The notes under the pieces were generated by a model. It had not been told where the DNA came from. It did not search any database and worked only from the letters and a program-made list of their open reading frames with translations. A DNA stretch of 64,000 bases from Antedon mediterranea. Taxonomy: Eukaryota > Animalia > Echinodermata. Every line of letters begins with the position of its first letter. The first letter of the stretch is position 1. The DNA lies in NCBI RefSeq assembly GCF_964355755.1, contig NC_092677.1, forward strand, positions 5,602,101 through 5,666,100, given 5' to 3'. A program made the translations under genes and the position numbers. Below are positions 3,091-57,100 of this stretch, in pieces.

Positions 3091-3123
3091 AATAATAAAC
3101 ATATTTGTTTATTGATCCGCTAG

Positions 3124-6100: not shown

Positions 6101-8762
6101 TTGCACCCAATTTAGGGAGATTTCGTGTCGACGACCTATGATTCATGTAAACTGCATGCTTCTCAAGATTGTGTTTGATGAAAACATTTCATTAATTAAC
6201 ACGTAGGCCTACTTTATAGATATTTCGGACTCTATATCAAACATTTTATATTAACAAAAATAAAGAGTTTAACCATGGACCTATAAATTAGGTCCATGGT
6301 TTAACTACCAACATATCAAGTCAATTTAAAACACGTACTTTAATTTTATAGATTTGTATTTGCTGATATAAATATGATTTAATACAATTTTAAGATTAGA
6401 TCTATTATTGATTTTTGTACAAGTTTCCTTAGATTGTATATGTGTATATGCTGTTGCCGATAATACGAGGTTAAAGGGTTTAATTGAGAATTGATGTTTA
6501 ATATATTTTCCTTTTATTGTATATTTTATTTCTCTCAATAATACGAGTTTAGTGAAGTTAAGAATAATAATGTAGTGTAGGTTTGTGTTTAAAATAATTT
6601 TGAATTACACTTATCGACGCATTACAAGCATGTTATGTTGTTGCCATTAGGACACGTTACTCTCATATATTTTTTCCAATGAAAATTAACTGTGAAAATA
6701 AGATAACAAACACGTGATGTCAGTTGTATAAAAAGTAATTAGTTGAGTAAACGAGTCATTTATTATTTATAATGAACGTATTAAAATTCCAAGGCAGTTT
6801 TAGATTATTATTATTATTACTATTAGTATTAGTAGTAAATACAATTTCTAGTTGCTAAACCTTTCTTTTTATATATTAAATATTAAATCTGTTTTAAAAC
6901 AATGTGTTCTTATACAACCATTTAGATATAATTTCGAAGTTCGTTTTAAATAGTTTTAGAAATACAACTTAAGTTACTTATTTGATTTCTTTAGATCCAA
7001 TTTATGTTATAATGGATTTCCTACCAAATGGGAACTTATTGGGTCATTTGCGAAGCAGTCGACAGAAGGTAGAAAGTTCCAACCGTACAAGTATGAAAAC
7101 GTATCTTAGTCCGACAGATCTTCTACGATACGCGTATGAAGTAGCCAACGGTATGGCGTATTTGGCATCAATGAAAGTAAGTACCGTAGAATGATGTCAT
7201 ATCACCATATTTGGGCACATCACACTTATAGTTTGGTAGTGTAGACAGAGCTTAAAAATATAATGTTGTTGTTAAAACAAATTTGAAATATTATTTTAAA
7301 GGCAGAACAAGTATTAACAAAATACTATGGAAACATAATGTTTGTTTTTTAGTGTATACATCGTGATCTTGCAGCAAGAAACATCCTGTTATCATGTGAC
7401 TGTGTATGTAAATTAGCAGATTTTGGATTGGCACGTGACGTAATTAATGGCGGGGTTTATCAAAGGAAATCACAGGTTAGGCTAACCAGAATTGTGATGC
7501 ATACAGAAATAATCACCGTAGCCCAACTATGTGTTCCAAACACGTTTTTAATTTGTGACTGTTACCTTCAAAAACCATGCTTGAGTTTCTATCTAGACAT
7601 AACAATAGGTAACTGTTTAAAAAAAAAATAAAAATAAATTTCTTTTTATTTCCAGGGTCGAGTTCCAATACGTTGGATGGCATTAGAATCACTTATTGAT
7701 AATGTTTACACAATACAGAGTGATGTTTGGTCGTTTGGGGTGTTGCTTTGGGAAATTATAACTATTGGTAAATCTTTTACACTTTTGATTATTCTTTGCT
7801 CCTCAAATTATTTTCCGTCTGTCACCTCAAATTGATGTTGTGAGGACCAACTAATAAAATAACTAATACAAATGTTATCCCTTCACTATTTCAAGTAAAT
7901 CACTCTCTTTATTTATAGCACGTATCCGATGCATGTTTCTGGTTTTCTTCTTTCAACTTCAAGACTTTCTGCAGTATAAATTTATATTAGACTTTAGTGG
8001 CCCGTAAGTAAAAAAAAGAGTTTAAGGGTTACTTTCTGTAAAAATTTACCTCAGTTCAACTATAAAAGTAATATTTCGTTAAATCAAGTTGTGTTGATTT
8101 TTCAGGATCATACCCGTACCCAGGCATGTCATCTAAACGTCTTATATCAGATTTACAGAAAGGCTTTCGAATGCCAAGACCAGATCACGCAAATGACGAC
8201 GTGTAAGTTATTCATCAATCATAATAATCCTCGTAAAAACAAGTGTCAACCTCCCTCGTCATTTGCACGATTATAAAACATGTTTTAAATTTTGTTTTAC
8301 TTAGGTATCAGATCATGTTAGAGTGTTGGAACACAAGTCCAGAATTACGACCCAGTTTTTTGGAACTAAAACGCAAATTAGAGATAATGTTATCAGAATG
8401 TAGGGTGAGTGATAAGATTATCGGCGAGCACATTTTATCAAATGTGAATCTCAAGAATTATAACCACTTTATGCTAGCCAATTTATTTACTTGCTTACTG
8501 AATATTATCTACAGTGCATGTAAATAAGGATTTTATTTCACATTTTTTAATTTTTTTTAACAAACAGGAATACATTGTATTAGACGAGCTCGAAGAACTT
8601 GTGTATGACTACGCCTTAATCGGTTCCAACGACATCGCCAAAGAGATATTTCCGGAAGTTGCCGAGAATGATTTAGCGACGACTCGTAAGACCGGGAGGA
8701 GTCTTCGGACTGAGCGAACGCCTTCGGGAAAAATACAAACACCATTCGACTTCCCCTTATAA
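3124..8762 (+). CDS. Receptor tyrosine kinase, FN3-TM-kinase, RET/Cad96Ca(Stitcher)-like kinase domain; 5'-incomplete
   Basis: Eleven phase-compatible exons: 3124-3291, 3721-3843, 4768-4946, 5370-5571, 5856-5966, 6995-7176, 7353-7475, 7656-7767, 8106-8202, 8305-8404, 8568-8762. FN3 (FDPPKSDGG...[23 protein letters not shown]), TM ([29 protein letters not shown]), [53 protein letters not shown]. No upstream coding exon was identified in 1-3123. Confidence 0.93.
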
Positions 8763-8914: not shown

Positions 8915-9692
8915 CAGCTCAGATTACATTTTTTAAAATCCTACATCTGTCATTGGTTTTGGTAATACTGCCCAGATAATTATAAAGTATTACGTCGATA
9001 GGGGGCTGGATATATCCATGCACTACAGCTCAGATTACATTTTTTTCAATCCTACATCTGTCATTGGTTTTGGTAATACTGCCCAGATATAAAGTATTAC
9101 GTCGATAGGGGGCTGGAGTATCCATGCACTACAGCTCAGATTACATTTTTTTCAATCCTACACCTGTCATTGGTTTTGGTAATACTGCCCAGATATAAAG
9201 TAATACGTCGATAGGGGGCTGGAGTATCCATGCACTACAGCTCAGATTACATTTTTTTCAATCCTACATCTATCATTGGTTTTGGTAATACTGCCCAGAT
9301 ATAAAGTATTACGTCGATAGGGGGCTGGATATATCCATGCACTACAGCTCAGATTACATTTTTTTTCAATCCTACATCTGTCATTGGTTTTGGTAATACT
9401 GCCCAGATATAAAGTATTACGTCGATAGGGGGCTGGATATATCCATGCACTACAGCTCAGATTACATTTTTTTCAATCCTACATCTGTCATTGGTTTTGG
9501 TAATACTGCCCAGATATAAAGTATTACGTCGATAGGGGGCTGGATATATCCATGCACTACAGCTCAGATTACATTTTTTTCAATCCTACATCTGTTATTG
9601 GTTTTGGTAATACTGCCCAGATATAAAGTATTACGTCGATAGGGGGCTGGATATATCCATGCACTACAGCTCAGATTACATTTTTTTCAATC
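8915..9692. repeat. Tandem repeat, about 107-bp unit, 7 full copies plus a partial copy
   Basis: Unit cagctcagattacatttttttcaatcctacatctgtcattggttttggtaatactgcccagatataaagtattacgtcgatagggggctggatatatccatgcacta starts at 8915, 9026, 9132, 9238, 9345, 9453, 9560 and 9667. Confidence 0.95.
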
Positions 9693-12649: not shown

Positions 12650-22532
<9,883 letters not shown>

Positions 22533-26900: not shown

Positions 26901-29230
26901 CATTTCTTACGACAAATCGACGTAGTCGCAACAAAAGTGATGTTCTTACGTCGACAGGAAACCAGCCTTAAGCAGCAACAGATTTTTGTGTACGATTTGG
27001 AGATATATATGTACTAATTTCATTTAAAAATGCATTTAAATTAGCTTTAGATCTTAGATTAGGATTAATTAATGGGGACATCCCTACGTGGAATCGTTGG
27101 AAAAAACATAATTAGCCTATATATAGTTCCAGTTGCCTGTCGAAGTTTCGTATTGCTGTAGGCTACGTGTAGCCTAGCTGGGCCTAGTATTAGGATAGGC
27201 CTTAGGCGTTTTAGACTTGCTAGACCTAGTATTGTTTGGTCGGTTTTTTTTTTACATAATTAACACTACACTACAGTAGGTGCGTTTATAAAATCCATAT
27301 AAATAATAATATTTAATATCTTTGTTAAAAACCAAATGTTACTGTTTTAATCAATGTGAATCAGATGTAGGCCTTGGCTAGGCCTACCTTTTATTTGATT
27401 CAATAGTCAGCTGTGTGACTTAGGCAATTAAGGAGAGGAGACTCATGAATTTTTAAATAAAATAAGAAATACATTTTTATAGTATATTTTTTAACCCATT
27501 TGTTACAAATTCTTTCTCTTTTATTGCTACTTTTCTTTTCTAAAATCATCAGTGTTAATTTTAATCTGAGGAGCTGATGCTATTAAATTTTGTTACTTAA
27601 AGGTAGCACTTTTTGTATATAGATGATATCGACAGCCTCATAACAAAAGTGTCTAAGTCATAATTTTTTTTTCTGCCTAACTCACTGCTTATATCAATAT
27701 ACTATATTTGTTGTGTTTCTGCCTAAGTCAGCATAATAATAGTACAGGGATTTTTTTCGAAAAATGGCCAAATTTTGACCTTTTTATTTTTGGACATAAA
27801 TTGTTACTATAGGTCTATAACATGATTGTAACGCAACATATGCGCATATATAGTAATATTATTGCATAATAACAGTATTTTAAAAAGTGCATTTTTTGGG
27901 CATTTTTTGCCAAATTTCGACCTTTTTATTTTTGGACATAAATGGTTACTATTACTATAGGTCTATAAGATGATTGTAACGCAATATATGCGCATATATA
28001 GCAATATTATTGCATATTAACAGTATTTAAAAAATTGCGTTTGGCCATTTTCTGAAAAAATCCCTGTACTATAGTACATGGATTTTTTCGAAAAATTGCC
28101 AAATTTCGACCTTTTTATTTTTGCACATAAATGGTTACTATAGGTCTATAACATAATTGTAACGCAATATATGCGCATATATAGCAATATTATTGCATAA
28201 TAACAGTATTTTAAAAGGTGCGTTTTTTGGCCATTTTATTGCATAATAAACATGGGAGGAGACGAATAATGGATTCTGCGAATGTCAATTGTCATATAGT
28301 AACCAGTTTTGACATAAATGGTTACTATAGCATAATAATAATCATGCGCAGAGTCGTGTAATGGGTTCTGCGCATGTTAATTGTGCTATAGTAACCAGTT
28401 TTATCGAAAAATAAATAGGTCGAAAATTGGCCATTTTTTGAAAAAATCCATTATAGTACAGGGAAATTTTCGAAAAATGGTCGATTTTCGACCCTTTTAT
28501 TTTTTGACATAAATGGTTACTATTGCATAATAAACATGTGCGGAGACGAATAATGGGTTCTGCGCATGTCAATTGTGCTATAGTAACCAGTTTTGACATA
28601 AATGGTTACTATAGCATAATAAACATGCGCAGAGTCATCTAATGGGTTCTGCGCATGTTAATTGTGCTATAGTAACCAGTTTTTTCGAAAAATACAAAGG
28701 TCGAAAATTTGCCATTTTTTGAAAAACTCCCTGTACTATAGTACAGGGAAATTTTCGAAAAATGGTCGATTTTCGACCCTTTTATTTTTTTACAAAAATG
28801 GTTACTATTGCATAATAAACATGCGCGGAGACGAATAATGGGCTCTGCGCATGTCAATTGTGCTATAGTAACCAGTTTTGACATAAATGGTTACTATAGC
28901 ATAATAAACATGCGCAGAGTCATCTGGTTCTGCGCATGTCAATTGTGCTATAGTAACCAGTTTTATCGAAAAATTAAAATGCTATAGCATAATAAACATG
29001 CGCAGAACCCATTATTCGTGCATTTAAATGTGCATTTTATATTGCGTTATAATCATCTTAAATAAAATATTAGATCTATACTGTAGAACATGGACATTTT
29101 TGGAAAGTGGACAAATATCGACTCTTTAAATTGATGTATTCAGTGCAGATCACATTTTCTAATTCTGCGCATGCTATTTTGCAAATAACATGCGCAGCCC
29201 ACATTACGTAATTCTGCGCATGTCATTCTG
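23943..29230. mobile_element. Large degenerate DNA-transposon-like element with inverted subterminal repeat arrays
   Basis: 23943-24150 is the reverse complement of units repeated at about 27740-28230 (cgaaaaatggccaaattt.gacctttttatt...tatgcgcatata...aacagtattttaaaa). Further arrays of gcgcatgtcaattgtgctatagtaaccagtttt at 28250-29230. No transposase ORF; boundaries approximate. Confidence 0.55.
24371..26968. mobile_element. Non-autonomous PIF/Harbinger-type DNA transposon, about 2.6 kb
   Basis: Perfect 26-bp TIR aggctggtttcctgtcgacgtaagaa (24371-24396) / ttcttacgtcgacaggaaaccagcct (26943-26968), TAA on both sides (24368-24370, 26969-26971), and subterminal ggtttcctgtaaaatc repeated three times. 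Confidence 0.85.
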
Positions 29231-29324: not shown

Positions 29325-32300
29325 TTACAGCATAGTTTTCACTCCATAATTGCTTTTGACGGTCAGCGTGGCAGATCCTTTGAATAGTTTCATCTGAAAC
29401 GCCCTCATAACTTTACACACGTACTTGCCATCATCTGCCTTGCTGACGTCATTAATGAACAGAGTACATCTTCCATTATCTTCCAACTCCGTGTAATACT
29501 TGCTGCCTGGTTTAGTGACGTCAGTTGTCGAGGCTATGACGGTGCCGTTAAATTTACCATGCTGGTTGTTTCGGTACCACATAACTCCGGTAATTTCCTC
29601 ACCCGGTGGTAGGATTCTGCACTCAATATAGGTACTTCTGTCCCCAACCATTGCCGTCTGATTATATACATGAACTGTTAGGTTACCTGAAAAATAGAAC
29701 CTTTATTCAGTAAGGTAGACACAATTGTATGCAGTTCTGTTGTAATTAATTGTCAGTAGTCAGTCCTATGACAAACAGTATGTAAAATATGCATTTGTCG
29801 TCAAGCTCTGGAGAATCAATTTTTCAATCTTTTTTTGCGACTATGAGACTGTATTTTGTATGTACACATACCTTCTATTAAACAAGAGACAGAGGAAAGG
29901 GACTAATAATACTGTGTGTCTACATGAAAAAAATAGTCTAAGTTTAACTGAATATGTTTAATTCACGTGTAGACTAGGCCTACACGTGACAAACATAGTC
30001 CTTAATAATATGTGTCTCCTAAATGTAAACATATTAATTTGTATTTACAGTTAACAGTAAGAGTCCCCATTCCACTTGCTGCTGCACCGCTGTCGTACTC
30101 TTCCTCCTCACTGTTTACAAAACAAGCATACTTCCCGCCGTCATCAACTTTAACATCCCGGATGATAAGTAAGCCCCTCCCTTTCTCTTCGTCTATAATT
30201 GCCTCGTACTTGGGGGTCCTTTGAACGTAGTCATCGTTGCTAGATGCAATAGCCTCTGTATAATTGTCGAATTTTCGAAACCAAGTGGTGGTCCTGATAG
30301 CGCTTGTTTTGGGGAATATTTCACAGACGATTGAACTACTTTCAGATGCTTCTTCTACCTGCACATTGCGAACATGTGCCACAAGTTTCGCTGAAACAGA
30401 ATTCATACATTTAATATTTTAATTTGTACTAACAATTAAGTTTTTGAGAAAACATTGGTTTAGAAAACATTGGTTTAGAAAACGTACAGCCCAAATCTTC
30501 AACGAAAATAAAAAGAAGATTGGACAATCTTCTCATTCACTCCATCACAAAAACCCTGAAAAATAGTAGCTTTTTTTTAACAGACTCGGCGCATTAGATC
30601 GGATTGATCTTCGTAACACATACATTATTTTAAGATTCCCGAACAATTAAACTGCGTCTAAAGACTGAACTAAAAGATTATGATAAAAAGGATCGTAAAG
30701 AGTACAACCACAAGCCACCACCAGGTGACTACTGCCCTGTAGCAACTTCTACTTACGTTCGACAGAGAGCATAAAGCTTTTTACATGAGTTTCGTCATTT
30801 TTCATCAGAACTGTCAGTTTGTAGAGACCAGCATCATACGGGATCAAGTCATCAATTGTCAATTTGAAAGAACCCGGCTCTCCAAATTCCACAGCATATC
30901 GATTTAAATCTGGACAAAATAAAATCGGTTTAGAAAGTGTTTGTGTACTACACTTTACTTTACGCATTAGGCATTTCTTTAGAAACGTTTCAAATGCATC
31001 ATTCCTCCACTTCCGTTTATTTTTTCCATCAGTACAATATGCAATGTGTAAAGCTCTGTCTACACTATCAAAGTTTATGTGAAAAAACATGTAATAATAA
31101 TGATGATAACATAATGCTGTCATATCACTACCATATTTGGGCATATCACTACCATATTTGGCCACTTTACACTTTTTTTGTCAAATAAGTTTGATAGTGT
31201 AGACAGAGCTTTAAGAAACATCCATTTTACTGAATGATGGAAAACAACAACACTGATGAACAAATTCCTTTTTATTGTACTAAACAATCATTATCTAATT
31301 TTATTTCAAATATTTTTAAACATAAGTGGATTATCATACCTTTATTATCAGATTTCTTCAATGTACCTGACTGATAAAAATATGAAAATTAATTTTAAAC
31401 GTGATTTACTGTGCAAATCTTAGACAAACCTATTGTAGAGCCTGTTTCCTACTTCCCGAATTTATTTGCTCAAATCAATGACCAACATGTATTATAATTT
31501 CACCCACTTTTAGTGAAGCGAAACCAACTAGGAATGCTCGATTAGTGCGAATACATTCGCTTAGTGGAAAAAAGGTTTTAAGTTGAATCTTTATGAAGCA
31601 ATTTAGCAATATCATTATTTCATTTTCTTTTTATTGAGTAAAATGTGTTAATAGCTAAGGAAATAATGCACTACATAAAAATTACTGCAAGACACTTTTT
31701 GACAGAAAGTAAAGAACACAAAATGCATTATGTAGTTTTATCAGGGAAGAAATGAACTTACACAATTTTACTATGTTTTTTTTTAAAAGATATTTTAAAC
31801 ATTATGTAATATAATAAGAAAGTGTATATCGTGATGTAATATAAACAAATATGCTAAGGCGGAAAATACATAACAAAATATTGAAACTGTAATCAATGAT
31901 ATAGAAACTGAAATTTCATTATAATATTTAGATTAAATTATGTTTCGATAACACAGTATTAAAATCATAAAGATAATAGACGTCGATTATAATTACACTT
32001 ACTGTTTCGTATGGAATGTAATCATAGCCCTGCTGTTTATGTGCACTGGTGCTTTGATTATTGTCCTAAAACAATTGTACAGAAATATAAAAGTATGAAA
32101 AACAAGTGGTAAAACAAGGCAATATACCGACGACCGATCAACCGACCGACCGACATAGTGAGCTCTGCACACGACTAAAAAACTAAAAAGGTCCCGGGTA
32201 ATGCTTGGTTCCCACTATAGACGCAACACAATGCAACGTAAGTGATTTGACCAATCACAAGCAAAGGATTTCGTTGCCTCTACATCCCGCATTGCGTTTC

Positions 32301-35300
32301 TAGTGGGAACCGAACTTAAGGGATCATCTGGAGGATTGCTTTCCCTTACTCATGACAGCCTTGTCCATGGCGGGTCTAACCCTGTGTAAATGTGGCGTGA
32401 ACATTGACGGTACATGTACATAAACTTAGTGAAATAAAAATATATAACATAATAATAATAATCAAAAGGCTTGTGACGAAATGTAAGTAATTTGACCAAT
32501 CCGAAAGCGATGGATTATTCAAACTGTTGATTGAACGTCCTTGCTGTGCGTCTCTAGTGGGAACCAAGCTTAACTATGCATATAAATTAAATCTCATTTG
32601 AGGCTTAGGAAGTGGAGTAAAAACAGCCCTTTGCGCCAAAGTATGTTTTGTATTGCACCCTAACACTTGGTCAGGATTGAACCCTTGTTCTTAGGATTAG
32701 AAGGCAAGCAAAAACTCCAGTACTAATTTTTAATGCACAAAAAACAAAACTGTATATTTCCTGCAAAGTTTTAACATAAACAAATGAACAATATTTAAAA
32801 TATTGGATTATCCTTATTATTTGTTAAATCTATACTTTCAATTTGAACATTTTATTGATATAAAACCAGGCGATACATACCTTGATTTCGTCATAATTAT
32901 TATCCAGAATGAAGTAAGGTCTGACTAAATCATTGCTTGATCCATCCATTGGTCCAGAGTAAACGTTTCCTGACCCAATGGCTTTCATACGAGTTCTGAA
33001 ATAAAAAAAAAAGTTTTTTAAAAGTGTTCATGCTAACATTGTGCATTACTTTGTGAAAATCTCAAAGACAACATGTCTTACCGTTTAGCTTCTTTATTTG
33101 TTGTGATAAGGCCTACATTAAAAAAGAATGTATGAAAGTGATTTATTTATAATTGTATATACTAAAACTGGATGTTGAATAGACATATTTAAAAAAGGAA
33201 ATACATATTAATCGTTTAAAAAAATTAATAATGCGATTATTCAAAACTAGAATTATTTTCGAATATCCAGAGTCCAGCTATTTCTATGTGGAACGTCAAA
33301 CATGTACTCAATATTATCTTAGTTGTGTTAGGGTTAAGAATGTGTACGATTTCCAGAAATTGTTGATGTTGTCATCGATTATGATTGGTCAATTCTTTTG
33401 ATTTTGCACTAACTTATAAGACTCAAACTATACCTGTATTAAATGTGACAATGTGATCCGTTTTGTCCTCTTCTTTGTTGATTTTGAACCACGAGATACT
33501 GGCAATCTTGGCATTCATAGGTTCATAGGTCAACACAATGTTTGCTGAAGCACCTTCGTTGAATTCGAAGTCATCGTCAACAAATAGTTTGAACGGCAAT
33601 ATTTGTTTCTTAAATGCTGCACCTACAGGTATAAACAATAATAATACACAGTAAGTAATAATTAATAATGTCACTAATCAAACAACGTTAAGCTACATTC
33701 ACACGGTTCCATGTTGTTAGATAATGGAAAATAAATCATGTAAGGAGATAATTGAAGAGCCATTTTCCATTCCGTGTAAATGTAGCTTATAATACCACAC
33801 AACTAATCAACGAAATGTGATAAACAACATGTTTATTATTTATTGGAGGCCTATACATATTTCCTTTTTTAAAATTTCATTTAGGCCTACTTTTGTTCTA
33901 AAATTGGAAATTGTTTCATTAGATTATATTGGTCCTTTTAACTTTTGCTATTGGTCTTAGTTTCTTCTTACCTTTGAACATGAAACCCAAAGACATTCCA
34001 ATGATTATAACTACAACGAACACAGATATCCAAATCAAGATAAAGGTCTTCTTCCTATCCTTTTTATCAGAATCTATTAAAAAATAAAAATATATGTATA
34101 ATTTTGTACTATTTAATCATGGTGTTTTTGATGAGATATTTTAGTAATTTTATTTATACCAATGTATATACTGTGTATACTAAACTATACTGTAAAAGTT
34201 TGAAAATTAGCTAATATGCATATTTTACTTTTTTTATTTACTATAATTACAGGTGTAAGTAAATTCCAGAAAATAATGAAAAAGGTGAGGGTAATATAGA
34301 AAGATAATGGATATAATGTATAATATATTTGTGATATATGACGAACGAATAAAAGTTGTAGTTTACACCACAAAAGAGAGAGAATAAAAAAAAGTTTATT
34401 TGTAATGCAGTAACGAATATTGAAAAGAAGAAAAACCCAGAATGAATAGAAAGGAGAAACATATAAAGTGACAGTGCTGACAATTAATCATAGGGCTAAT
34501 AGGCCTAATATAAAAAAAAATAAAATAAGATACTATAATTCTCCGTTTATACTTACTAGATGAGTCCAGTCCTTCTATATTGCTCGTCTGGTTCATAATA
34601 CCTATACCTGTTTCAACACTAATACGACAGGAATAGTTTCCAACATCATCAGTTTCAGATAAAGTATGAATAATGAGCTTAATCCTAGGTTTTTCTTCAT
34701 GTTTCACAGTGTATTTGGACAAAGTGGTATCTAGTATATTTTCATTACGATACCATGTTACGTTTGGTTTCGTTTTGGGATTTATTTCAGACCACTGGCA
34801 GTAAAATATGTTGACATTTACATCGTTTCCAATTTTCTCGGTGGATGCAGTGAGAGTTGGCGTATCCATATCTTTAACAAAAATATCGACAAAATGACAT
34901 AGTAATAATTATTGTTTTTAAAGGAAGAAATCATTATTAATTAATACCTGCTAAATAGCCATTTAGCTGAGTCTATGTTTGGTATGAAATAGAACGGCAG
35001 TTGCAAGAAATAAACGTATAAACTTGATTAGTAGCCAGAGCTTTATGTTTATAATATAATATATATATAATGCACTGTATTATTATACGGAAATATAAAA
35101 TAACTCACAATATACATCCAGGTGATATGTCGTAATGACATCATTTTCCCCGCCACTTTCAACAACTTGAACAGTGTAATGTCCTGTATCCTCTCTGCTT
35201 ACATTTTTTATCCTCAAATCTCCATAGGGATCAACGATCGAAAATTTTGGAGATTTAGTTGTATTACCAGAATTAATGATAATTTGTTTAATATTTATTT

Positions 35301-35803
35301 TTTCATCTTTGAACCAACTTATCGATTGTATTTTGTCATTTCGAATACCACCTCCAGCAGGAATTGTGATTATTTCACCTTCAATTATTGACAGTTCTGA
35401 CTGTGTGGCTAGAAAAAAACAACAAAAAAACACAATACAATTTTACCATCTCATTTAGTCGTGTTCGTACTGTAACCTAAACGTAAAGCTAAGTAATACC
35501 ATACTTGTAGGCAGGTGTTTTATATGTACACAGATAATGATTATTAACAGAACAATAAGAGAAAACCCTTTTACTTATACTTGGTATAGTTGGGCTCTTT
35601 ATGCTTGTGATGTCTGATGTCTCAATTTTTAAGAGATTTTTAAGTATTTAATTAGTCCTATGACACTTGCAAGTGTTGCAGTATTGGAATAAGCAAGTCT
35701 ATCATCGGAACAATAACCACTGATGTTTATTAAACTTACCGATGGCATTTTCAATAAAAAACAGTAGGACGTATACGGACAGGAACACAAATTGTGCCAT
35801 CAT
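29325..35803 (-). CDS. Ig-superfamily type I receptor A (about 688 aa): SP-Ig-Ig-TM-[split Ig with Tyr-rich insert]-Ig-Ig
   Basis: Exons 35803-35740 (MMAQFVFLSVYVLLFFIENAI), 35408-35109 (Ig), 34871-34557 (Ig), 34073-33972 (TM FILIWISVFVVVIIIGMSLGFMF), 33622-33434 (Ig first half), 33112-33082, 32995-32881, 32065-32003, 31370-31340, 30909-30757 (Ig second half), 30390-30049 (Ig), 29686-29325 (Ig and stop). All introns GT-AG, all phases compatible, 2067 nt total. Confidence 0.8.
31050..31211. mobile_element. MITE with TIR aagctctgtctacactatcaaa
   Basis: Perfect inverted termini flanked by TA. A partial copy of the right end lies at about 7192-7253. Confidence 0.8.
32201..32571. mobile_element. 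Two MITE copies of the ggttcccactag family
   Basis: gcttggttcccacta...ctagtgggaacc (32201-32317) and a left-degenerate copy ending ctagtgggaaccaagctt (32571); internal tgaccaatcacaagc as at 1060. Confidence 0.7.
33690..33788. mobile_element. Short MITE
   Basis: TIR aagctacattcacacgg / ccgtgtaaatgtagctt flanked by TA. Confidence 0.6.
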
Positions 35804-45100: not shown

Positions 45101-48100
45101 CGTTCACGATCTATTTGCTCATAAAACACACTCAGCATTTGAATAACCTTTTTTATGTTGCTCTTTCAACAGAATTTATCATAATTTCCCATCACTTGGA
45201 ACACTAATAACAGTATAATTAGCTTGATGTGGCAGAATTATATTAAACCAATGACATCCTCTGGTTGGCAGAAACTGTAATATATGTGACAAATTGGTTG
45301 ACAATCTTTAGTGAAAAAACGTTTCCTTCCGCAGTTTTTGGGACCTCTTAAATGGGAATTGGTTACTGTCTCCCTTTGGAATTGTTTTCCTACAGTATCT
45401 TTATCCGTCTGGCAACTTTGATTGCTAAAACTAATTTTCTTAATCTTCTGGTATTTATTTGTTATTAAGTACTTTGAGGCTTTTAACATTATGCGCTACA
45501 TAATCTAGAATTATTATTTTTTTTGTTGGGAACCAATAATTACTACTTTACAATAAACAAAATTACTATCCTTATAAAGAGCAATTGAAAAAAACATATT
45601 TTTATTCGAAATTTGAACTTTAATTCATACAATTTACATAACATGCAAAATACAACACTAAATTAAAACAAGACAAATTTATAATCACTCAAATATCTAG
45701 TAGGTTAATGAGACGTAATCTCTTAAATACATGATGAGCATCTAATTTATGGATCCACAGTAACAATGAGACTAAAATCAAAAAAGACCCTGTGCATACA
45801 AACTGTAATGATCATCTGGCATTTGTATATAAATTTCAACTAATAACATTCCACAACAACTGTATATTTTCTGTCTTCCTTCAACTTCTACTTCACATAT
45901 GTATATTCCTTCATCTTCAGATTTAATGTTTCTGATTTCAAGACACACCTTATTCTTATTAATATATGCACATTGACAGGGTAATCCTAAATTGGTTTTT
46001 AAATTTTCAGGTGAGTTTATTGATGTCAGGAAGGTCTTTGCTTCTCCTCCAGCATGCTTATACCACTTGATATCGGATATTACAGCTGAATCATCAAAGT
46101 ATGTTATATTTAAAAACAATTCAACATATTTTCATCCCTCATTAGTAGTAACATCAGGAATCTCCATTTTGAGAGCAGCTATAAAAACAAGACCAGGAGA
46201 CAATAATTCTTTAAAACTGAATTTTATTACTGGACTTGATTTGCAGTATTTAGCTTAAAAAATGCTTTACCTACTTTATTTAAGAAATTGCATTTGACTA
46301 TTTTAAAATCATTCATATAATTATTAATTGTATAGCATTTTATTTTATCTTTATCTGTATTCTGTTGAGTTTTATGTTGTCAGATGAATTTGAGATCTAG
46401 AAATTAAATTTCTAATATAGTTGTCAACTCATAATGATTAATGGAAGATACACACTTGGAGAAAAATAAAATGCATTACCTTATACACAGAAAAATAGAA
46501 TAGTAGTACTTTAGGGTTAAGTGTCTTTAGTTTTGGGGTTTTTCAATGCCTTGGGTATTTAATAGAGGTAACTAATACAGTATTCATGAGTGTTTTAAGC
46601 ACTGATTTGCCACCACCACACAATGTGAGAAGAGCTGCTTTAGATCTAGGTGATCAAGATAGTAATAAGTTTTGGATTATTTAAAAAACCTAAAAAAAAA
46701 AGTTTTCCTTGGTATGTACAACCATAATGACTAAATATTTTACTTTAACAATACAAATTTAAGGTCTTACTTTCCTAGATAGAAATTGTACTGATATCCT
46801 AATATTTAGAACTGTCAATTCAATCTTGTCTTTTGTCCGTAACGTACATATTTTCGCAGTTCTATTTTTAGCAACAGGATTCTTTCACATTAACTTTTTT
46901 TTGGAAAGGGGGTATGTGGTATATTTAATATATAGAATTTAAACCAATTACCAGAACATTTTTATCAATTGATTTTCGACTTAGACTCCATGATTTAGAA
47001 AAACCAAAATAATAATAGTAGTAGCTTTTACTTTTGTAAAATATAAGGGCCTGAGGCCTATTTCATGTTCGAATAAAATCTTGAATTGAATTGATAATAT
47101 TTTGTTTGTCCGTCCTTTTCGTTGAATAACACTCTTTTACATCAAGCACAATACAATTTTCATCTTTGATAATTATTATGATGATTTCTGAAGTCACATT
47201 TTGCAGAGGAACTGTAAATAAAGTAACACATTACCTTCCTTAACTGTCAGCTGTGTAGAATCTTCCAGCTTCTTTTCTCCATCAACTGGCTTCACTTCAC
47301 ATTGATACTTCCCAGCATTACCAAGTATAAAATTCTTTATCTTCAAAGACAGAATGCTATTTTGGTAACTTGTTACTTCAAATCTGCCATCTTTAGAACC
47401 ATCCTTAATCTCTGTTGTGCCATCTTCCTTAATCTTCTTCCACTTGTAACCTGTTAATGGCATATCTGCTGGTCCATATCTGCACTTCATTTCAAAATTA
47501 CTGACACCACGTTCTGTTGAGTAGTTTGGATTTACCATTTCAATCCCTTCAAAAAATGTGAACATTTTAGATAACAATTTTGTGCAGTTTGATTTCCATT
47601 TTCAAATAGATTAAGAACATACACATAGTAGTATTTTGTCAAAAAAGAATGAAGCTGACTTCATTTTAATAACCTTTTATAGGATATTTTAAATATTCTT
47701 TTCTGTATTCCAATAAAAATAAATGATACTGTTTTTTTCAAATATTATGTGCATATATTGTATATTTAACTTATGTCATCAACACTTTCTATAGAGTATC
47801 TTATAGGGATATTAAAGAAACAAATTATAAAAACTCACAATAAACAGATAAATTGTTGACACCTCGATACTGCTGTCTACTGCCATCTATGCTGCAGTGG
47901 TACTCTCCTGAATGAGATCTCACAGGATTTGGAATTGTTAGGTTGATGCCTCCTCTACCATTTGTAGACACTGAAAAAACATAAATTAAATACACAATTG
48001 TTTTCCCATAAATTGAGCTTTCAGTTTGAAATAAAATATTTTCTTTTTTTTGTTATTCATCTAAACTGAGACATTTGAATTATATTCTGAACTATGTTAT

Positions 48101-51100
48101 GTTTTACAAGGGAAGAGTGAAATTAAGTTTCACCAATCCACTATAAAATAAATGCAACCTTTTTAAACTAGCTTATAGGAATATGCAGTCGTTCCTGTAG
48201 TATAAATTAAAAGAAAATAGATGTGTTGTTACTTACTTGTATATGAACTTGATCTAAAAAAAAGAAGCAATATGAAAATAAATAAAATCAAGTAATTGCT
48301 TAACCAGAGTTGAAAGATAATCTATATTAGGCATAATAATTGAGTATTCATTAATTTCTGTTCCATTAAAATAGCGGTCATAAAATAAATAATTTTTATT
48401 CTGTTCACTATTATATACTAGAAAAAGATCTTTAAATATCAAATAAAATCAACTTATTCTTTCAAATCAAAATAAGGTAAACACATAACTTCTTAATTCC
48501 TTTTTTTTTGTAAAATGAAAACAGAATAAAAATAATAAAGCTCATTAAAAGGCTTTTTTTTTTTTTTTTGAAATATATATTTAAAAATAATTTGTTGTTG
48601 AAAAAGCCATGTTAAGGTCACATACAGGTTATTTATATTTATATTTCCTTGATAAACCGTAATTTAAAGAAAAGCAAATAGGCAACCAGAAGCCCATTTA
48701 TTTTAAATAAGCAAATTAATTTGACTTTTTTAAAATCAGCAAATTAATTTAAAAAAATTAAAACTGGAATATCTAAATTGGTGTGATTTAATTCATCGTT
48801 ATTGGTTATATTTTGTGGGACAATACATTTTTAAATATAAATAGTAGAGATTATGAATACAATACCAACAAATTGACACAGAAATATTATATCAATTTAT
48901 TATATTATATAAACATTGCAGCAAGCATCAATATTGATGCATGTTGCTCTAACCATTATTTGTGTAATTTGTTTGTAGACAGAACTAAATGTAAGCAAGC
49001 AATGAATGAAGGAAAACATTACAGTAGTACATGATGATATAAACAGCAACAAGAGTAAGCAGGAGAATATCTTAGAATCCAATGGTACATGATAAAAATA
49101 AATGCTAATAATAATATATGTATATAACAATAAATGCTAATGTAAATGCTATTTTACAAGCAACAGTAGATGATGAAAAGAAAAAAGGTATTGTAGGAGG
49201 CACAGTAGCAAGCAAATTAAACAGGCAACCCATAAGCCAAAGTTAAAGATAAATTATTCAAAATATGTTTTAGATTTAAAGTGCATCAAACCTGTGAATT
49301 AAAATACAATTGTAGCTTAATTCCGATTTGAATAATTTGTTTGTAAGAAGATATTGAACACTGATAAAAATTGGAAATCATTATTTATCTCCATTTTATG
49401 TTTTCGCACCAATTAATAATTGATTAATAGGCACACTTTTTAAAATCACATTCATTTTCATGCCGTGATTGAGAATTACACTATGCCATACAGTGCTCAC
49501 AGAATTTGAAGAAGGTTGCCTTCCAAATTCTTTGATGTCCTTTAGCGATAGCCAAATGAAAAAGAAATAACAAACTTGTAGACGAATATAATTTTGCAAT
49601 AAAATATATTACCACACATTCCACAAACCATTACCTTTTAGGTGAGTCATTTGCTAGGACAATAAAAAAATAAACAAAGAATACATTCAGTAAAGTTTTA
49701 AAAGTGACCAAGGTGTTTTGCAAAAGGTAATGACAAACTTATTTATTTCAGTTTCATCTTTTTTGCCTTAACACCAAAGCTACAGTATAATATAGAGTAA
49801 AGAAACGGTCTGCTTTAAGAAATAGAAATTCACAATTATTAATTAATATTAATTAAAACAATAAAAATACAATGAAAGATATGCAACAATATAATTATGA
49901 TTATTATGTATAAATATGCTTTACTCTGTAATAAGGACAAATACTTTCCTCAATTTGTAATTTGTTTTGTTGTATAATAAATTAGATTGTATTGTATCTT
50001 TAAAATGCATGTTTTTACTTCTTTCTTTTACTTTTTTACTATGTCAACATCATTATAGTTTACATAATGCAATGTAAAGCAATACAAAGAGTTAGACCTT
50101 TATTTTGTTTAAATTGTCACATTCTTTGAAATACCAAGTATCTGACAACATTTAGACTGGAACTCAAGTTCAAGTCTTTTAGCAAAAATGGCAACTGTAA
50201 CCTTTAACATTCAAAAGTCTACAAATAAATGGTTTTTAACAAAAAAATATGCAAAGAACAGAATATTTTTTCTTTTTATCTAGCTTTTAGTGTATAAGTT
50301 TTGCTTGAAGTTCCATGAACATACAAATCCAAGCTAAATACAGATACCACAACTGACCTAGTCATACCTACTGTACTTACGAATCTCAGCTCACAAGTCA
50401 CATATGTCTTAATGATTCAAATAAGACTGAAGATTTTAATATTTTTAATATTTTTATTTTTTTGGTTTAAAAAGATATATTGCCCACCTAAACAATTTTT
50501 ATTTTTTTATATTTTGTTGTTGAATGTATGCCATTTTAATTTCACATAGTTATTCACTTTGACTAAAAATTGGATCACCAAAAAATGATTTACCTTTAAA
50601 AAACTGTAATTTAAATTTAATTGTTTATTTATTTTTTTTTTTACAAGTGAAATCAGTATGTTTGTTGTTTTTTTTCCTATGGAAGTGAACAACATTAAAA
50701 CTGCAAAATCTGGTTTATTAATCTTTATTTTTCATTATTTGGGTGACAATACATCTTTAAAAAAAAGCAGAAAAAAGATGCTGAAAAAAATGTCTAAAAC
50801 CCATGTGTGTAGATGTAAGACTAGATCAAGAATAACGACTTTACTGTCATACGTGCCCATGCATTTTTTCAAAATTATACTTATATTTAGAATTTATTAT
50901 CAACAAACATTATGCTTGACCAATTTTTAAGAGCTGAAGAATGGGTTAGCTTGAACTAATAACTACTGAAGGTACAATTATGATGACTTCATTTGCAATA
51001 CCTAGGTTTGTCATATACTGCACAGCAAACTTCCTATGTACACAAACCCAGCACAAGTGCTTACAAGAATATTTCCAAACTCAACAACCAGTTATTGGTA

Positions 51101-54100
51101 GTTCAACGAGATCAACCAAGATATTTTCAGTCTGCTTAATATTTTATTTACATCACATGGTGAGAATCTTGTTGAATGTTATTAATGTATCATATCTTCT
51201 GCATGTGGTCTTGGACAGCATGTGATTAATAAAATGGCCATTTGTTTTTTTTATAGTAAAATTAAATGCATTTTTGCTTTTTTTAAAGTATTTTGTTTTA
51301 CCTTTAGGATGTAGCACTCCTTCTGATAATTCAAAATAAGAAGTTTGTGCTTCGGTTCTTTTTATTTTCTTAGATGTACTGGGACGTAAATCGAGATCAA
51401 CATATTTTATCTCTTTCTATAAATAATTAAAATAGATAACTACATAAACATAACAAATGACACCTGTTAAATACATTCATTGTTCAACAAGGTACTTTCT
51501 TCAATTGGTCGGATTGAAAATATTGTTATTTTTGCAACAATTGGTTTTGTTAGATTATCAGCAATCAAATGTTTCTACATCTAAGTGTACTGTATAAACT
51601 TACAGGTTTCACAGATTCAGGTAGTATTTTTTTATCTTTTCCAGATATTCCTATGATGACAAAATATCAACTTTACATAAAATTGAAAACACTATATTTG
51701 GTTTTTTTAAAAAGATCAATAATGCTAGATCTCAAATTGAACCAAATCTAAGAGCAGTGATTATTATTAAGTTTTACTTGTTCTATTTCAAAACAAAAAA
51801 AATGGTTTAAAAGTTATGATCTTAAAATTTAAGTAACCACAAGTAAAAGGTGTGACATTATAGTACCATAATAGTGTTGTGGTTAATTGCAAAAATCCAA
51901 AAATTGCACAATATTGTAATAGAAAGGTTAACATTATTTTAAAAAAATCATCCGCAACTACTGTACTAACAATTTTAATTATAGCAAAAAACAAAGCAAA
52001 AACTTTAAAAAAAATTGTTTTAAATGATATCACCAGTAGGGTTTCTGCCATGTCCTAAATCCGCATAAGTGACGGGTTTATCTTTCTTCTGTGAAAATAT
52101 TTAAATTACATAAATTTGGAATCGGAAATCATTTTGGAAATAAATCATAAATTTCAAAGGTTTCATTTGTTTCTATTTATGGTTTAGAGACTATCACAAA
52201 TTGTAAACAAAAGTGATTTAATAAATAATATTGATTTCTTTACATTTTTCAAATTTAACTACATAAAACTGATTTCTTTTATAAAGCTTTTAAAGTAAAA
52301 CAATTTCTTACTGTAATACTTCTGCCAATGCGTCTTCCTTAATAATTAAATAAAGAAGATAGTATAATTTAATAAGAACAAAGTATTTTAATCTTAGTAT
52401 AAAATAATACTGTTTAACATTTTCAGTGAACAATTCACATAAAAAGTCCCCAGCATTTCAATAGTGCTGCAGTACTTTATTCACGGGAGGTACCAACCAA
52501 GAAAGAAATTGCTTGGCCTTTCTCTTTTTCATTTCATTTCATTTATTTATTTGACCAACAAAACATAATATACAATGTACAAAGATGAATTGGTCAGGGA
52601 CTGCTAAAGTAATACGATTACTGTAACTACAAGAGTCAGCAGTCCAATGATCTTAACTAAAATATATAATTTTATGAACAAATAAAGTAAAAAGCTGTGA
52701 GTATACAACAAAAAAAAGAACAAAAATGATATACAAAAAAGTTGAATAAAATAGTATTAGTATTTTAGTTACATTTTTAATTAAGTTCAGAAGAAAACAC
52801 TGTATTCTGGTAGATCTTGTGTAATGTAGCATCTACTGTAAATAGTAACAAAATATAATATGTACATCTTGAAGTTGTTGCCACTTTGATTTTCCTTAGT
52901 GAGCAAGACACAACACACTAGAGCCTAACACTTTAGTAGAATAATACAGTAGATATGAAAACCATTGTTCTATATGAGCATAGGTGTAGATGTTTCTTAT
53001 CTAGTTTTAAATAATACACTGTTCTTCTGTTTTATTGCTGTACAGTAGGTAACTATGAGTTTTACAACATGACTGCTAAGCAGTAATCAAGCACTTACTG
53101 AATATTGTTTTTATTATTTACTGTGGAAGGGTAGATATTTTCGGGATGGTAATGTACACTATAAAACATCACACTACATACTACATTCACAAAATTAAAT
53201 GGTCAATAAATGCAAGATCTAAGAATTAAGATTCAATTAAAAATTCCTATTTGGACTGTTTATCTTTCTTATACCAGCAGCTTAAAGCTGAACAGAGATT
53301 AATGGTTAGGTTTACAGTACCTTCATATTCAGCATTTCCACCAGATGTTCCTTGATGTTCTGCTAAATGTTCTTCATCTTCATCATCAGGATTTATCTTT
53401 GAAATAAAACATTTTTAATGCAGTTCAGGCTGATGCTAGCAAGAAATTTTCTTTGCCAAAATATCAAAAAGTTAGAAAATTGTTTATCCTGACAATAGAA
53501 ATAATAATAAACATGACCAACCTCAAACCTTTGTCCGGATATAGCAGAGATTGTTATTGGCTGTTGTTGGCTATGTGAACTTGATGTGATGAAAACTTCT
53601 GTTTCATTGTCCATCATCTGATACTCTTCACCACTTCTAATACCACAGTACATATGACAAATACAAATTAAAATTAAACTACAGCATGGACCTTTGGAGC
53701 GTCTTTCATGAAAGTTCATATTTAAACAAATCTGTGTTGCATTTAAAAAATTGGTTATTGATCTCTAAAGATTTCAAATTATTTCTATTTAATGTATAAA
53801 CGTTACTAAACTCACCTGTTTCCATGTCTCTTATCTTTATTTTTGTATCTAACTATTAAATAAACATAACAGATATTTGACCAGAAACAAACAAAACAAT
53901 TATCTCTTATGAAGTGAATTAATGTATAGTATTAATATTGTACATATGAATGTTATTATTAGTAAACATACCCTAGTAAAGTACAATAATGAACATTTTT
54001 ACTTTGAGCAATTGTATGTCACATGAATTTCCGTATGGACAAATAAAATGAACTATGAACTATGAACTATAATTGCAACAATTCACTCAACATTTTAAAC

Positions 54101-57100
54101 TATTTTTTAGCCCATCAGCAACCAATCAGATATAGAGGGCAGTGTTACTGAAATTGGCTGATAAAATACAAAAAATAACACACATACAGTGCAATACATT
54201 TTAAATAGTCATTCCATTTACAACCCTGAATGTTCAACATATGATTCATCTATTGAATTAAAGATGTATTGTTCCTTGAAACACAAAAAATGAAGGTCAA
54301 AATATTCTAAATTTAAATTGGGTATATCAAAGTAATATTAAAGTTAGTAAAAAATTCGAGCCAAAAACAACAAGTTTACGTAATTAACAGGTAAAATTTG
54401 ATTACATTTCGTCTGGAAAATCGTTGCTAGCGAAAGTAAACTAAGATTTCAAACCACAAGTATGCATTATGCATTGCTAATTTGTTTTCAACTCGTCACG
54501 GTTGAGAAGGTGTTTTCACACAGATCGGGAGGAAGTTTATGATTATGCATACAGAGTAGCCAAACAAATCGTGTTGCATTATGGGATATATTTTGATCGA
54601 AAACTTTGACTGGAAGTAAAAAAAACGTCTGTATTTCAGATAAATGATTTTTTGGTGAACGTTAATAACTATTATGATACTTCAAAATGACCCACCTTTT
54701 TTCGAAATCTTTTTTTTTTTTTTTTTTTTAAATTAGTCAAAGGGACAATACATCTAAAGGGACAATACATAAAAAGAAAGTAATTAACTAATTATCATAT
54801 GAAACTATCATAAAAACTCACAGGGAATGTCCCATTTTCTGCCTAGTCTATTAACAAAAAATGTAGTGTTTTCCCACCGACACTACAGTGAAATACAAAT
54901 TTGTTTTGCAATGAGAATATTCATATCCGCAATGAGGAAAACTTCATATTAGACAGACTGGTAATCATTAATAAAGTTATCTAATGTACTATATATAAAT
55001 GATATCATTAATAGTAGTAGATAACTATATTTATGATTATCATAGATATTTTAAAAATAATAAAAAGATATTACTTACATGATTTGATGCAGTATTCAAC
55101 ACAAAAAAATCCACAAAAGTAAAGGCAGCAATAACAGACAAACTGACAGACTGTTTTCCAACTACTGAATTGCTGTTGATTTGAACCAATCACCTTGTCT
55201 TCTTTTTTTATTTCAACCGTCTTGAACCTTGCAATACTTGGACGGTATTTAAAACTCATCTCAACTGGTTTACCACCTTCAACTGTCACTGTATTAATAT
55301 CTGTATTGCTCCACTCAATATTCTTGTAATACATAAAATCTAAAAATAAAAATTTAAACAATCTTACCCATAAAAAAAAAATTAATACAATCATATAAAT
55401 AAATTATTTGCTGAACAGAATACTATATTAAATACAATACCGTATTTATTCATAAAATTAATAAATTTAACAATCTCATTTGTCGCTAAGGGCCTGTTTG
55501 GACAAACAGTAATTGAATATGTAAGATTGACGCATGCGGCGAATACATCTTGGCCAAGGGAATAAAAAGTGCAAACAATTAACTACTAACTTTACCGTGT
55601 ATTTCAAAAACTAGCGAACAAGATTTGTTTTGATAGTCTTCACCTCTACACCATACATTATTGTACATTCCTATCCTGACAAACTATTCAAAACTTTCTA
55701 TATAAAAGTCAAAGATAGTAAGGTCTCGGGTCCATTCTGCAGTTGCCACAGATTGACTTCTTCATCAGTACTTCTATGAATGGATGATTAGTTGGGAACA
55801 TGAACGCTAGTTAATCATACCCAGTACCGTTTTGATCGTATGATCATTCGGGAAAACACCTCACAATGCTGCGAAGGTACATCATCATTAAAGCAAATTA
55901 AACTCATATTGTCAAGTTAGGCAATGGCAGCTACAGTATATCGGCTGAATTATCGTTATACATAATTCGGTCTCAATTTGTAAGGTTGATCACAAAAAAA
56001 CGACAGAAAATAGTAGTAGTTTATGGAAGATCATGACGGCAGTGGTACCGTCGCATGTGGGATAAAACTGGAATTATAACACAGTACAATTTTGACTGGT
56101 GGTCATATGAAATATGACTTTGACAACGTAAAATTTTTAACGTTTAATGTGTAAACTTGTCTAGCACATATAAAAGCCAAAGGTTGAGAACACTTGATTT
56201 GATCCAATTAAAAATAACCAATAAAGGAACTGAAAGTGAAATAGTTTCAAAGATAATCTCAATGTGCATGCTATTCAATTGATAATAATATTAAATAAAT
56301 TAATAATTCAGGGAAAAGATGCTTTACTTACAAACAAGGAGCAGTAACCATAGGAACAGACAAACAACAATCAAAGCAATCAGGATGATATAGAATGATC
56401 CTGGACCTGCTGGAATAATAATTCAGTATTTTCCAATTATTATTATTATTATATTTATATATGTATCATTTTTTTGTAGAATCAGTTACAAATAATTTAA
56501 AAACCTGTATTTATCAATTTTTAAAATTCAGATGAAATACTGTGACTGTCACTGTCAAGTAAACGTTGTGGCTGTACCAATATACAGTTTGCTGATTTTA
56601 TTAGATCATGCTGATATGCCGCAATGATTATAATAATGTGGCCATGGCAACAGACAAAATAAACATTTTACTATAGCCTGCAATTCTATTTGTTTTGAGA
56701 TTGCCATATACAAAATTTCTATATCAGTTCCTTGTTTTTAGGACCCAAGTGGAAATAAGTTTTTAACTTTTCTTGGCATTCCTTGTAATCAAGGCCTGTG
56801 TTTCTGTGCAATTGTTTTTTCTACTTTTTTTTTTGCATTGTTTTTATTGTTTTTTAACCTTGATTACTAAATAAAGAAATTCAAATTCAAATTAAAAAAA
56901 CTTACTCAATTTTAGTATGGTAAATAAGTACATAAGTGGGTTTGAGTCCCACACAGAAATTACTGCACTTGCATATATTTCCGCAAGTATTCTCAATGTA
57001 CTTAGTATAAAGTACAAATTACGTCAGAGTAGGGCAAAACATTATTTATTATTTGTTTGTTGTTATTTAAAAAATACACAATCAACACTTGTTTTGCACT

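Follow-up and report, generated by a model that had tools for sequence, protein, structure and literature searches.

Can the signalling tail of an immunoglobulin (Ig) receptor be carried inside one of the receptor's own Ig domains? The question is raised by gene A, a minus-strand gene in a stretch of 64,000 nucleotides (nt) from the crinoid Antedon mediterranea (NC_092677.1, positions 5,602,101 to 5,666,100; the whole stretch is called the window, and all positions refer to it). The first Ig domain after the transmembrane segment of gene A is encoded as two halves on either side of an 80-residue, tyrosine-rich insert. We give a probability of about 0.6 to the reading that these halves make up one domain, likely cytosolic, and that the disordered loop between them is likely a phosphotyrosine docking tail. 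The idea of a signalling tail displayed as a loop from an Ig scaffold came from a first, sequence-only reading of this DNA. It is sustained by predicted co-folding of the halves, predicted disorder of the loop, a cassette of small exons that is spliced in and tyrosine motifs that are conserved, while the argument then drawn from missing cysteines has to be given up.

Gene A (35803-29325) is made up of twelve exons with GT-AG borders, which give one open frame of 688 residues with the stop at 29325. From residue 214 onward this model is identical, letter for letter, to RefSeq XP_071958507.1 (P0001). The signal-peptide exon (35740..35803, residues 1-21) encodes a hydrophobic N-terminus, ends in phase 1 and lies outside the RefSeq model. 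Ig1 (35109..35408), also outside it, is a V-set domain (Pfam E 1.4e-07) with no cysteines, the first cysteine of the model being residue 146. Ig2 (34557..34871; Pfam Ig_2, E 1.5e-06) has a Cys pair and contains the RefSeq start. The transmembrane exon (33972..34073) holds the sole transmembrane-like stretch past the signal peptide, with a hydropathy peak of 2.95 at residue 237, and is joined to the next exon by RefSeq. Then come the exon of the first half-Ig (33434..33622), the four cassette exons, the exon of the second half-Ig (30757..30909) and two exons for intact V-set domains, each with both cysteines (30049..30390 and 29325..29686, the latter with the stop codon).

The exons of the split region measure 189, 31, 115, 63, 31 and 153 nt, and the cassette runs through phases 1-2-0-0-1. 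Its exons lie at 33082..33112 (31 nt, phase 1-2), 32881..32995 (115 nt, phase 2-0, with NVYS, YFIL and DxxYDEI), 32003..32065 (63 nt, phase 0-0, with GYDYI) and 31340..31370 (31 nt, phase 0-1), their splice-site scores are similar to those of the remaining exons, and the loop contains NVYSGP, PYFIL, NYDEI and GYDYIPYET. Leucine stands at both canonical positions of the B-F disulfide in the split domain. On all of these points, from coordinates, lengths and phases to motifs and missing cysteines, the earlier description agrees with the sequence. Neither half passes the Pfam cut-off, and the split domain is missed by routine annotation; the RefSeq labels are uncharacterized or obscurin-like.

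To describe the halves we used a family profile of 106 positions, derived from the 33 intact Ig domains that lie downstream in 12 family proteins. It excludes the split domains, a domain laden with repeats and another that is cut at its N-terminus. The halves of gene A match positions 7-48 and 46-105 of this profile, 77 residues apart, and the second half also matches positions 62-107 of the Pfam V-set profile. The first half scores 15.6-18.4 bits, a score reached by none of 300 shuffles. The V-set hallmarks are the C-strand Trp92 in the first half and D-x-G-x-Y (DAGLY at 216, both in P0001 numbering). From the C-strand Trp to the D-strand Tyr there are 103 residues with the cassette and 23 without it, against 25 in the next domain.

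Folded as two separate chains, the halves gave a complex score of 0.70 against 0.01 for the best of three controls, with a partner predicted local distance difference test (pLDDT) of 88 and at least 99% agreement in contacts between runs; it should be noted that the controls were unrelated proteins and not Ig halves, hence the pass may stem from likeness to solved Ig folds. The mark applied to this score was reached by 51/78 solved complexes and 2/108 mismatched pairs in microbes, and by 39/65 and 2/126 in eukaryotes. The predicted contacts between the halves pair strands B-E and C-F antiparallel and A'-G parallel, which is the normal V-set order, and the structure predictions, like the profile tiling, put A'BCC' and DEFG into a single sandwich. 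When the insert was kept, AlphaFold2 (11 alignment rows) left residues 109-192 below pLDDT 50 and almost without secondary structure, and residues 57-468 of the model align to an NCAM fragment with three Ig domains over 282 of its 288 residues (Z 14.2, root-mean-square deviation 10.9). In the Atlas model, residues 55-244 align over 115 residues to a single V-set domain (TM score 0.65 by target). Single-sequence AlphaFold2 of P0001 reached a mean pLDDT of 35.8.

The B-F cysteines of a V-set domain are absent here. V domains without the disulfide are known (CD2-like), so their absence counts against the word canonical and not against an Ig fold. The prediction is that the two halves together form a single V-set domain, from which a disordered loop extends between strands C' and D. 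That the halves would co-fold around a disordered loop had been anticipated, and the two-chain prediction, the AlphaFold2 model and the Atlas model all agree with it.

The split-Ig plan is shared by a family of genes, and the window holds one further case. Gene B, the next gene upstream (60555-46135, minus strand; RefSeq XP_071958880/1/2, mapped to the window), encodes a signal peptide and three Ig domains (60555-58741), a transmembrane exon (56332..56410), a half-Ig (55079..55339; profile positions 8-50), nine small exons (48237..53850), the D-G half-Ig (47839..47970, by profile and mapping) and an intact Ig exon (47546-47235). A motif search of its insert found one YxxM motif (YQMM), two matches to the consensus of the immunoreceptor tyrosine-based inhibitory motif (ITIM; VTYADL and IKYVDL) and one to the pattern of the switch motif (ITSM; TSYFEL), all after the transmembrane segment. 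RefSeq isoform X3 lacks four exons at 52337-51302, which carry the ITIM and ITSM motifs (81 residues), and keeps the remaining insert.

The order transmembrane segment, half-Ig, insert, half-Ig, further Ig recurs in six further Antedon genes, one of them in the window. Seven of the ten family matches, from six genes, have this plan with the transmembrane segment, two begin at the D-G half and one at the next Ig; the count is a lower bound because it was drawn from protein searches. All seven transmembrane-bearing proteins tested give two half matches to the family profile, and 2 to 6 more Ig domains stand behind the split one. Residues 20-245 of P0001, used as query, matched only P0001 itself among proteins of 261-832 residues. 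For the last Ig domain, searched against a 50% library, P0001 and P0002 (from another crinoid, see below) were the sole high-scoring full-domain matches among those listed, and the others (150 of the 180 listed) were generic Ig proteins.

Some further features of the family were seen. After the first half-Ig a Cys-rich, weakly hydrophobic stretch followed by basic residues occurs in gene B (55163-55079, minus strand) and in P0006-P0009 and P0012; it is possibly a palmitoylated membrane anchor. Atlas feature matches were all under 0.9 and none named this stretch. In several RefSeq relatives the Ig array after the transmembrane segment ends in a BNR (sialidase-like) domain, Ig exons being followed by BNR in P0007, P0008, P0009, P0011, P0013 and P0161; a PDB sequence search with P0011 returned Ig proteins only and no sialidase. 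Within the window, Ig exons followed by BNR exons lie at 43448-37165 (minus strand), apparently duplicated (41.6-39.9 kb and 39.2-37.2 kb). At 46179-45781 (minus strand) RefSeq gene B stops 15 residues into an Ig exon of which relatives read the whole domain. The array of gene B after the transmembrane segment may be cut short in this copy, since an open Ig frame goes on past the RefSeq end (46131-45781).

Further we looked at the loop in Anneissia japonica, of another comatulid family, where two proteins (P0002 and P0003) share 57% identity overall with gene A. The exons that bear the tyrosines are 33-38% identical where aligned, against 58-67% in the Ig parts; the exon borders in Anneissia were inferred from protein spacing. 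Of the six loop tyrosines, five have a counterpart in one or both of these proteins, including all three of the 115-nt exon. The conservation of motifs in a second crinoid family speaks for the cassette as a carrier of tyrosine motifs, as had been proposed. In gene A these are YFIL, YDEI (3 apart), YDYI and YSGP only, and P0003 has one ITIM-pattern match. GYDYI is absent in P0002 and present in P0003 as two copies 21 residues apart, a distance equal to the length of the 63-nt exon.

These data bear on whether the loop signals at all, or is an insertion that the domain tolerates because its C'-D position is permissive. In P0161 (residues 575-646) another Ig domain after the transmembrane segment has a long tandem repeat of Ser/Pro/Thr at about this position, and in four of the six relatives the annotated part of the insert contains no more than one YxxM-type tyrosine; both fit a tolerated insertion. 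The tyrosine motifs are, however, conserved amid a diverged loop, one of them is duplicated, and gene B has its two ITIM and one ITSM consensus motifs, hence we consider a non-signalling loop very improbable.

Expression was followed in one run, X1, which is presumed to be RNA (judged RNA-like from a GT-AG joint and bare introns), alongside DNA runs, X2 among them. The GT-AG joint 31370/32003, which links the 63-nt and last 31-nt exons, has a depth of 16.2 in X1 and 0 in X2. The same X1 contig carries the 63-nt exon, the last 31-nt exon, the D-G half and then both later Ig exons, a loose contig end being the start of the exon at 30909. A second X1 contig holds the first half and the 115-nt exon. 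The gap between these two pieces fits the first 31-nt exon (30 letters plus one shared letter), which is also in RefSeq P0001, and 27 leftover letters fit an assembly overlap with the first contig; both joins of this second contig are inferred from lengths. Inclusion of the cassette in transcripts is seen directly for its 3' half and is strongly implied for its 5' half, though the contigs do not establish one single RNA molecule. That the small exons are expressed, as expected from the first reading, holds for the 63-nt and last 31-nt exons, and the 33434-33112 join fits by length.

A third X1 contig (99 nt, depth 6.3; 32131-32038) runs from the intron into the 63-nt exon, while the neighbouring introns, as far as they were mapped, are otherwise without cover. 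It may be a retained intron end, an upstream acceptor or an internal start. The introns of the cassette also contain very high-copy repeats (31049-31213 and 32199-32573), with a summed depth of up to several hundred thousand.

Were there an internal start within or close to the cassette, it would yield a separate soluble Ig protein, and the first half-Ig would be a decaying relic attached to a tyrosine tail of the usual kind. The third contig is compatible with this, as are the models of P0002, P0003, P0010 and P0013, whose first residues lie within the insert or at strand D, though models this short could lack their 5' ends. In the gene B group the first halves are weak as well (5.2-8.7 bits, reached by 1-11 of 300 shuffles) and lack the C-strand Trp. 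The first half of gene A, on the other hand, keeps this Trp, has a score beyond all its shuffles and is spliced towards the cassette in RNA, and the two halves add up to one normal domain. We find a separate 3' product unlikely.

The cassette as a whole is phase 1-1, and it had been suggested that it is switchable by splicing. Skipping would indeed keep the frame and a normal Ig spacing, but the phase symmetry is uninformative, because any in-frame exons that enter a phase-1 intron must have it; the most natural reading of it is exon gain within a phase-1 intron, rather than proof of a switch. Only three of the 16 inclusion patterns of the cassette keep the full frame, namely all exons, none, and all minus the 63-nt exon, which is the only single exon whose loss preserves the frame. 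Given this, and the GYDYI copies at a 21-residue spacing, the variable unit is likely the 63-nt exon, in 0, 1 or 2 copies, and not the whole cassette. Loss of all 240 nt in some cells, which would leave a non-signalling form of 608 residues with a plain three-Ig tail and no tyrosine motifs, seems distinctly unlikely to us. Isoform X3 of gene B, with ITIM exons removed from the corresponding loop, speaks in its favour, yet it retains the remainder of the insert; what varies across crinoids is the 21-residue unit, and the cluster of gene A has one RefSeq member only. The skip join 33434-30909 was not among the joints listed; as repeats swamped that list, the closer mapping covered 31216-32140 and contigs lose rare forms, this does not count against its existence.

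Which side of the membrane the split domain lies on was approached from several directions. With a single transmembrane segment in gene A, everything after it is cytosolic if the signal and Ig exons are used, and we infer that a type I topology is likely, with Ig1 and Ig2 outside and the remainder inside. N-glycosylation sequons, pooled over seven related proteins that are close kin and not independent, which limits their weight, number 37 before the transmembrane segment against 19.4 expected (0/2000 shuffles) and 55 after it against 49.6 expected (P 0.22). Cys pairs are kept in 13/13 domains before the transmembrane segment in five relatives, against 23/33 intact downstream domains, 11 of them taken from models that lack a transmembrane segment. 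Both sequons and Cys pairs favour the type I arrangement. The absence of cysteines from the split domain had been taken to fit a reducing compartment. For gene A this argument fails, because Ig1 before the membrane has none either while both later domains have both; further, the D-G half of Anneissia retains the F-strand Cys.

If the transcript instead starts in the Ig2 exon, the helix could serve as a type II signal anchor. The split Ig, its loop and the Ig domains behind it would then be extracellular, with the tyrosines in acidic context as sulfated, ligand-binding sites. The RefSeq start at Met214, a basic cluster directly before the transmembrane segment, the Cys pairs of the two later Ig domains and the five sequons behind the helix are all in line with such a reversal, as are the relatives that end in a BNR domain and whose Cys-rich stretch could be a second transmembrane segment. 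That stretch is however marginal, with a crude insertion energy of +0.7 to +1.8 in five proteins and +4.1 in another, whereas the true transmembrane segment gives -5.5 to -7.8. The signal, Ig1 and Ig2 exons are open, GT-AG bordered and in phase, Ig domains precede the transmembrane segment in the RefSeq models of five of six transmembrane-bearing relatives, sequons are not in excess behind it, and the corresponding insert of gene B holds ITIM-consensus motifs. A reversed topology seems to us rather unlikely.

Several observations speak against a cytosolic signalling loop in gene A and have to be set beside those in its favour. XP_071958507.1 begins at Met214 in the Ig2 exon and has neither signal exon, Ig1 nor most of the Ig2 exon. 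No RNA piece among those listed covers the signal exon or links the signal, Ig1 and Ig2 exons, though the X1 gap on the Ig2 exon is no evidence of absence. The join of the transmembrane exon to the first half is taken from the RefSeq model, X1 showing just 13 unplaced letters before the first-half piece. Basic residues flank the transmembrane segment on both sides, and in gene A alone the sequons do not discriminate (5 against 3.0 expected before it, 5 against 3.9 after). For the halves themselves AlphaFold2 has low confidence (block means 43-58). As both Anneissia models begin within the insert, the transmembrane segment and first half are seen in Antedon only. Finally, the loop of gene A has no match to the ITIM consensus [SIVL]xYxx[IVL], to the ITSM or to the pattern YxxL/I-x6-12-YxxL/I of the immunoreceptor tyrosine-based activation motif (ITAM).

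For the cytosolic loop that we favour, the following course of events may be envisaged. Ligand binding or adhesion through Ig1 and Ig2 would cluster the receptor, and a Src-family kinase would then phosphorylate the loop. SH2 proteins could dock at DxxYDEI, which resembles half an ITAM, and at YDYI, next to the membrane and with both loop ends fixed. The Ig array behind the loop might serve as a scaffold for cytoskeletal or other partners, by analogy with a sea cucumber receptor described below. How strong the output is likely depends on how many 63-nt GYDYI exons are present rather than on removal of the whole cassette, and in gene B the same loop would bear YxxM together with optional ITIM and ITSM exons.

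A wider proposal is held tentatively, as possible rather than probable. These genes may represent an undescribed family of crinoid receptors whose entire signalling tail forms a loop of a cytosolic Ig domain. The cassette would be a slot for Src-type, YxxM or ITIM exons, which are varied by splicing and exon duplication. The Ig array would carry further cargo, in several members a cytosolic sialidase-like domain, and as both ends of the tail are fixed, access to the motifs could depend on tension or domain opening.

Textbook Ig receptors have their Ig domains outside and an unfolded tyrosine tail inside, whereas this family appears to have Ig domains on both sides with the tail threaded through one of them. 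SIRP, Siglec, PECAM-1 and CEACAM1 share with it a signal peptide, an Ig ectodomain, one transmembrane segment and small exons for a tail with tyrosine motifs, and motif exons that vary by splicing, as in gene B. In those receptors the tail is a free C-terminus without a fold, whereas in this family the exons for it lie between Ig halves, with 2 to 6 Ig domains behind. By motif content, gene B with its ITIM consensus after the transmembrane segment is a candidate ITIM receptor, and gene A is not a candidate ITIM/ITAM immunoreceptor.

Domains that tolerate exon-coded inserts are known, such as NCAM with VASE, LAR with its mini-exons, cardiac MyBP-C with the C5 loop and the split PH domain of PLC-gamma. 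The Ig inserts among these are short (about 10-30 residues) and are not receptor tyrosine tails, and the insert of PLC-gamma is folded SH2/SH3. Titin and obscurin resemble the family in their tandem, likely cytosolic, Ig domains, and titin fragments rank high in the fold search; the family differs from titin in being short, transmembrane-bearing and V-set-like, at 14-18% identity. Obscurin is a giant Ig array with RhoGEF and kinase domains and without a transmembrane segment, while gene A has 688 residues, one transmembrane segment and Ig families only. The name obscurin-like, given automatically to P0002 by RefSeq, reflects generic Ig likeness.

The tail of integrin beta-4 offers an analogy only, as its modules are fibronectin type III and not Ig and its segment lies between domains and not within one. 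It consists of such beta-sandwich modules and a connecting segment, and is tyrosine-phosphorylated through Fyn (passages of PMC2150849). YDYI of gene A and Anneissia is one conservative change from YDYV, the Src-binding motif given for p130Cas in passages of PMC3665742; Cas is a soluble adaptor, and a likeness of four letters is a lead only. A precedent for a cytosolic Ig domain on an echinoderm receptor is AjNLR-new of the sea cucumber Apostichopus japonicus, a membrane protein reported to have an intracellular Ig that binds actin and Fidgetin (passages of PMC13133943). Compared by description only, it differs in having NACHT and two predicted transmembrane segments, and those passages mention neither a split domain nor a tyrosine loop (PMC13133943). 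NACHT was not among the Pfam matches of the five family proteins scanned. We found no description of a receptor with its tail inside an Ig domain after the transmembrane segment in the open-access literature, though supplements of crinoid genome papers could list these genes. If the reading is right, crinoids have a new receptor design, which shows how a folded domain can acquire tail exons and still stay intact, and gene A, without ITIMs, and gene B, with optional ITIMs, are paired candidates for activating and inhibitory signalling in an invertebrate.

Elsewhere in the window, exons at 3100-8760 (plus strand) presumably encode a receptor tyrosine kinase, with a fibronectin type III-like piece, a transmembrane segment and kinase motifs, and those at 12700-22530 (plus strand) we take, again from motifs, to encode a membrane-anchored, BACE-like aspartic protease. 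Self-comparison of the window revealed arrays of tandem and inverted repeats at 8915-9692, 18853-19571 and 27739-29019.

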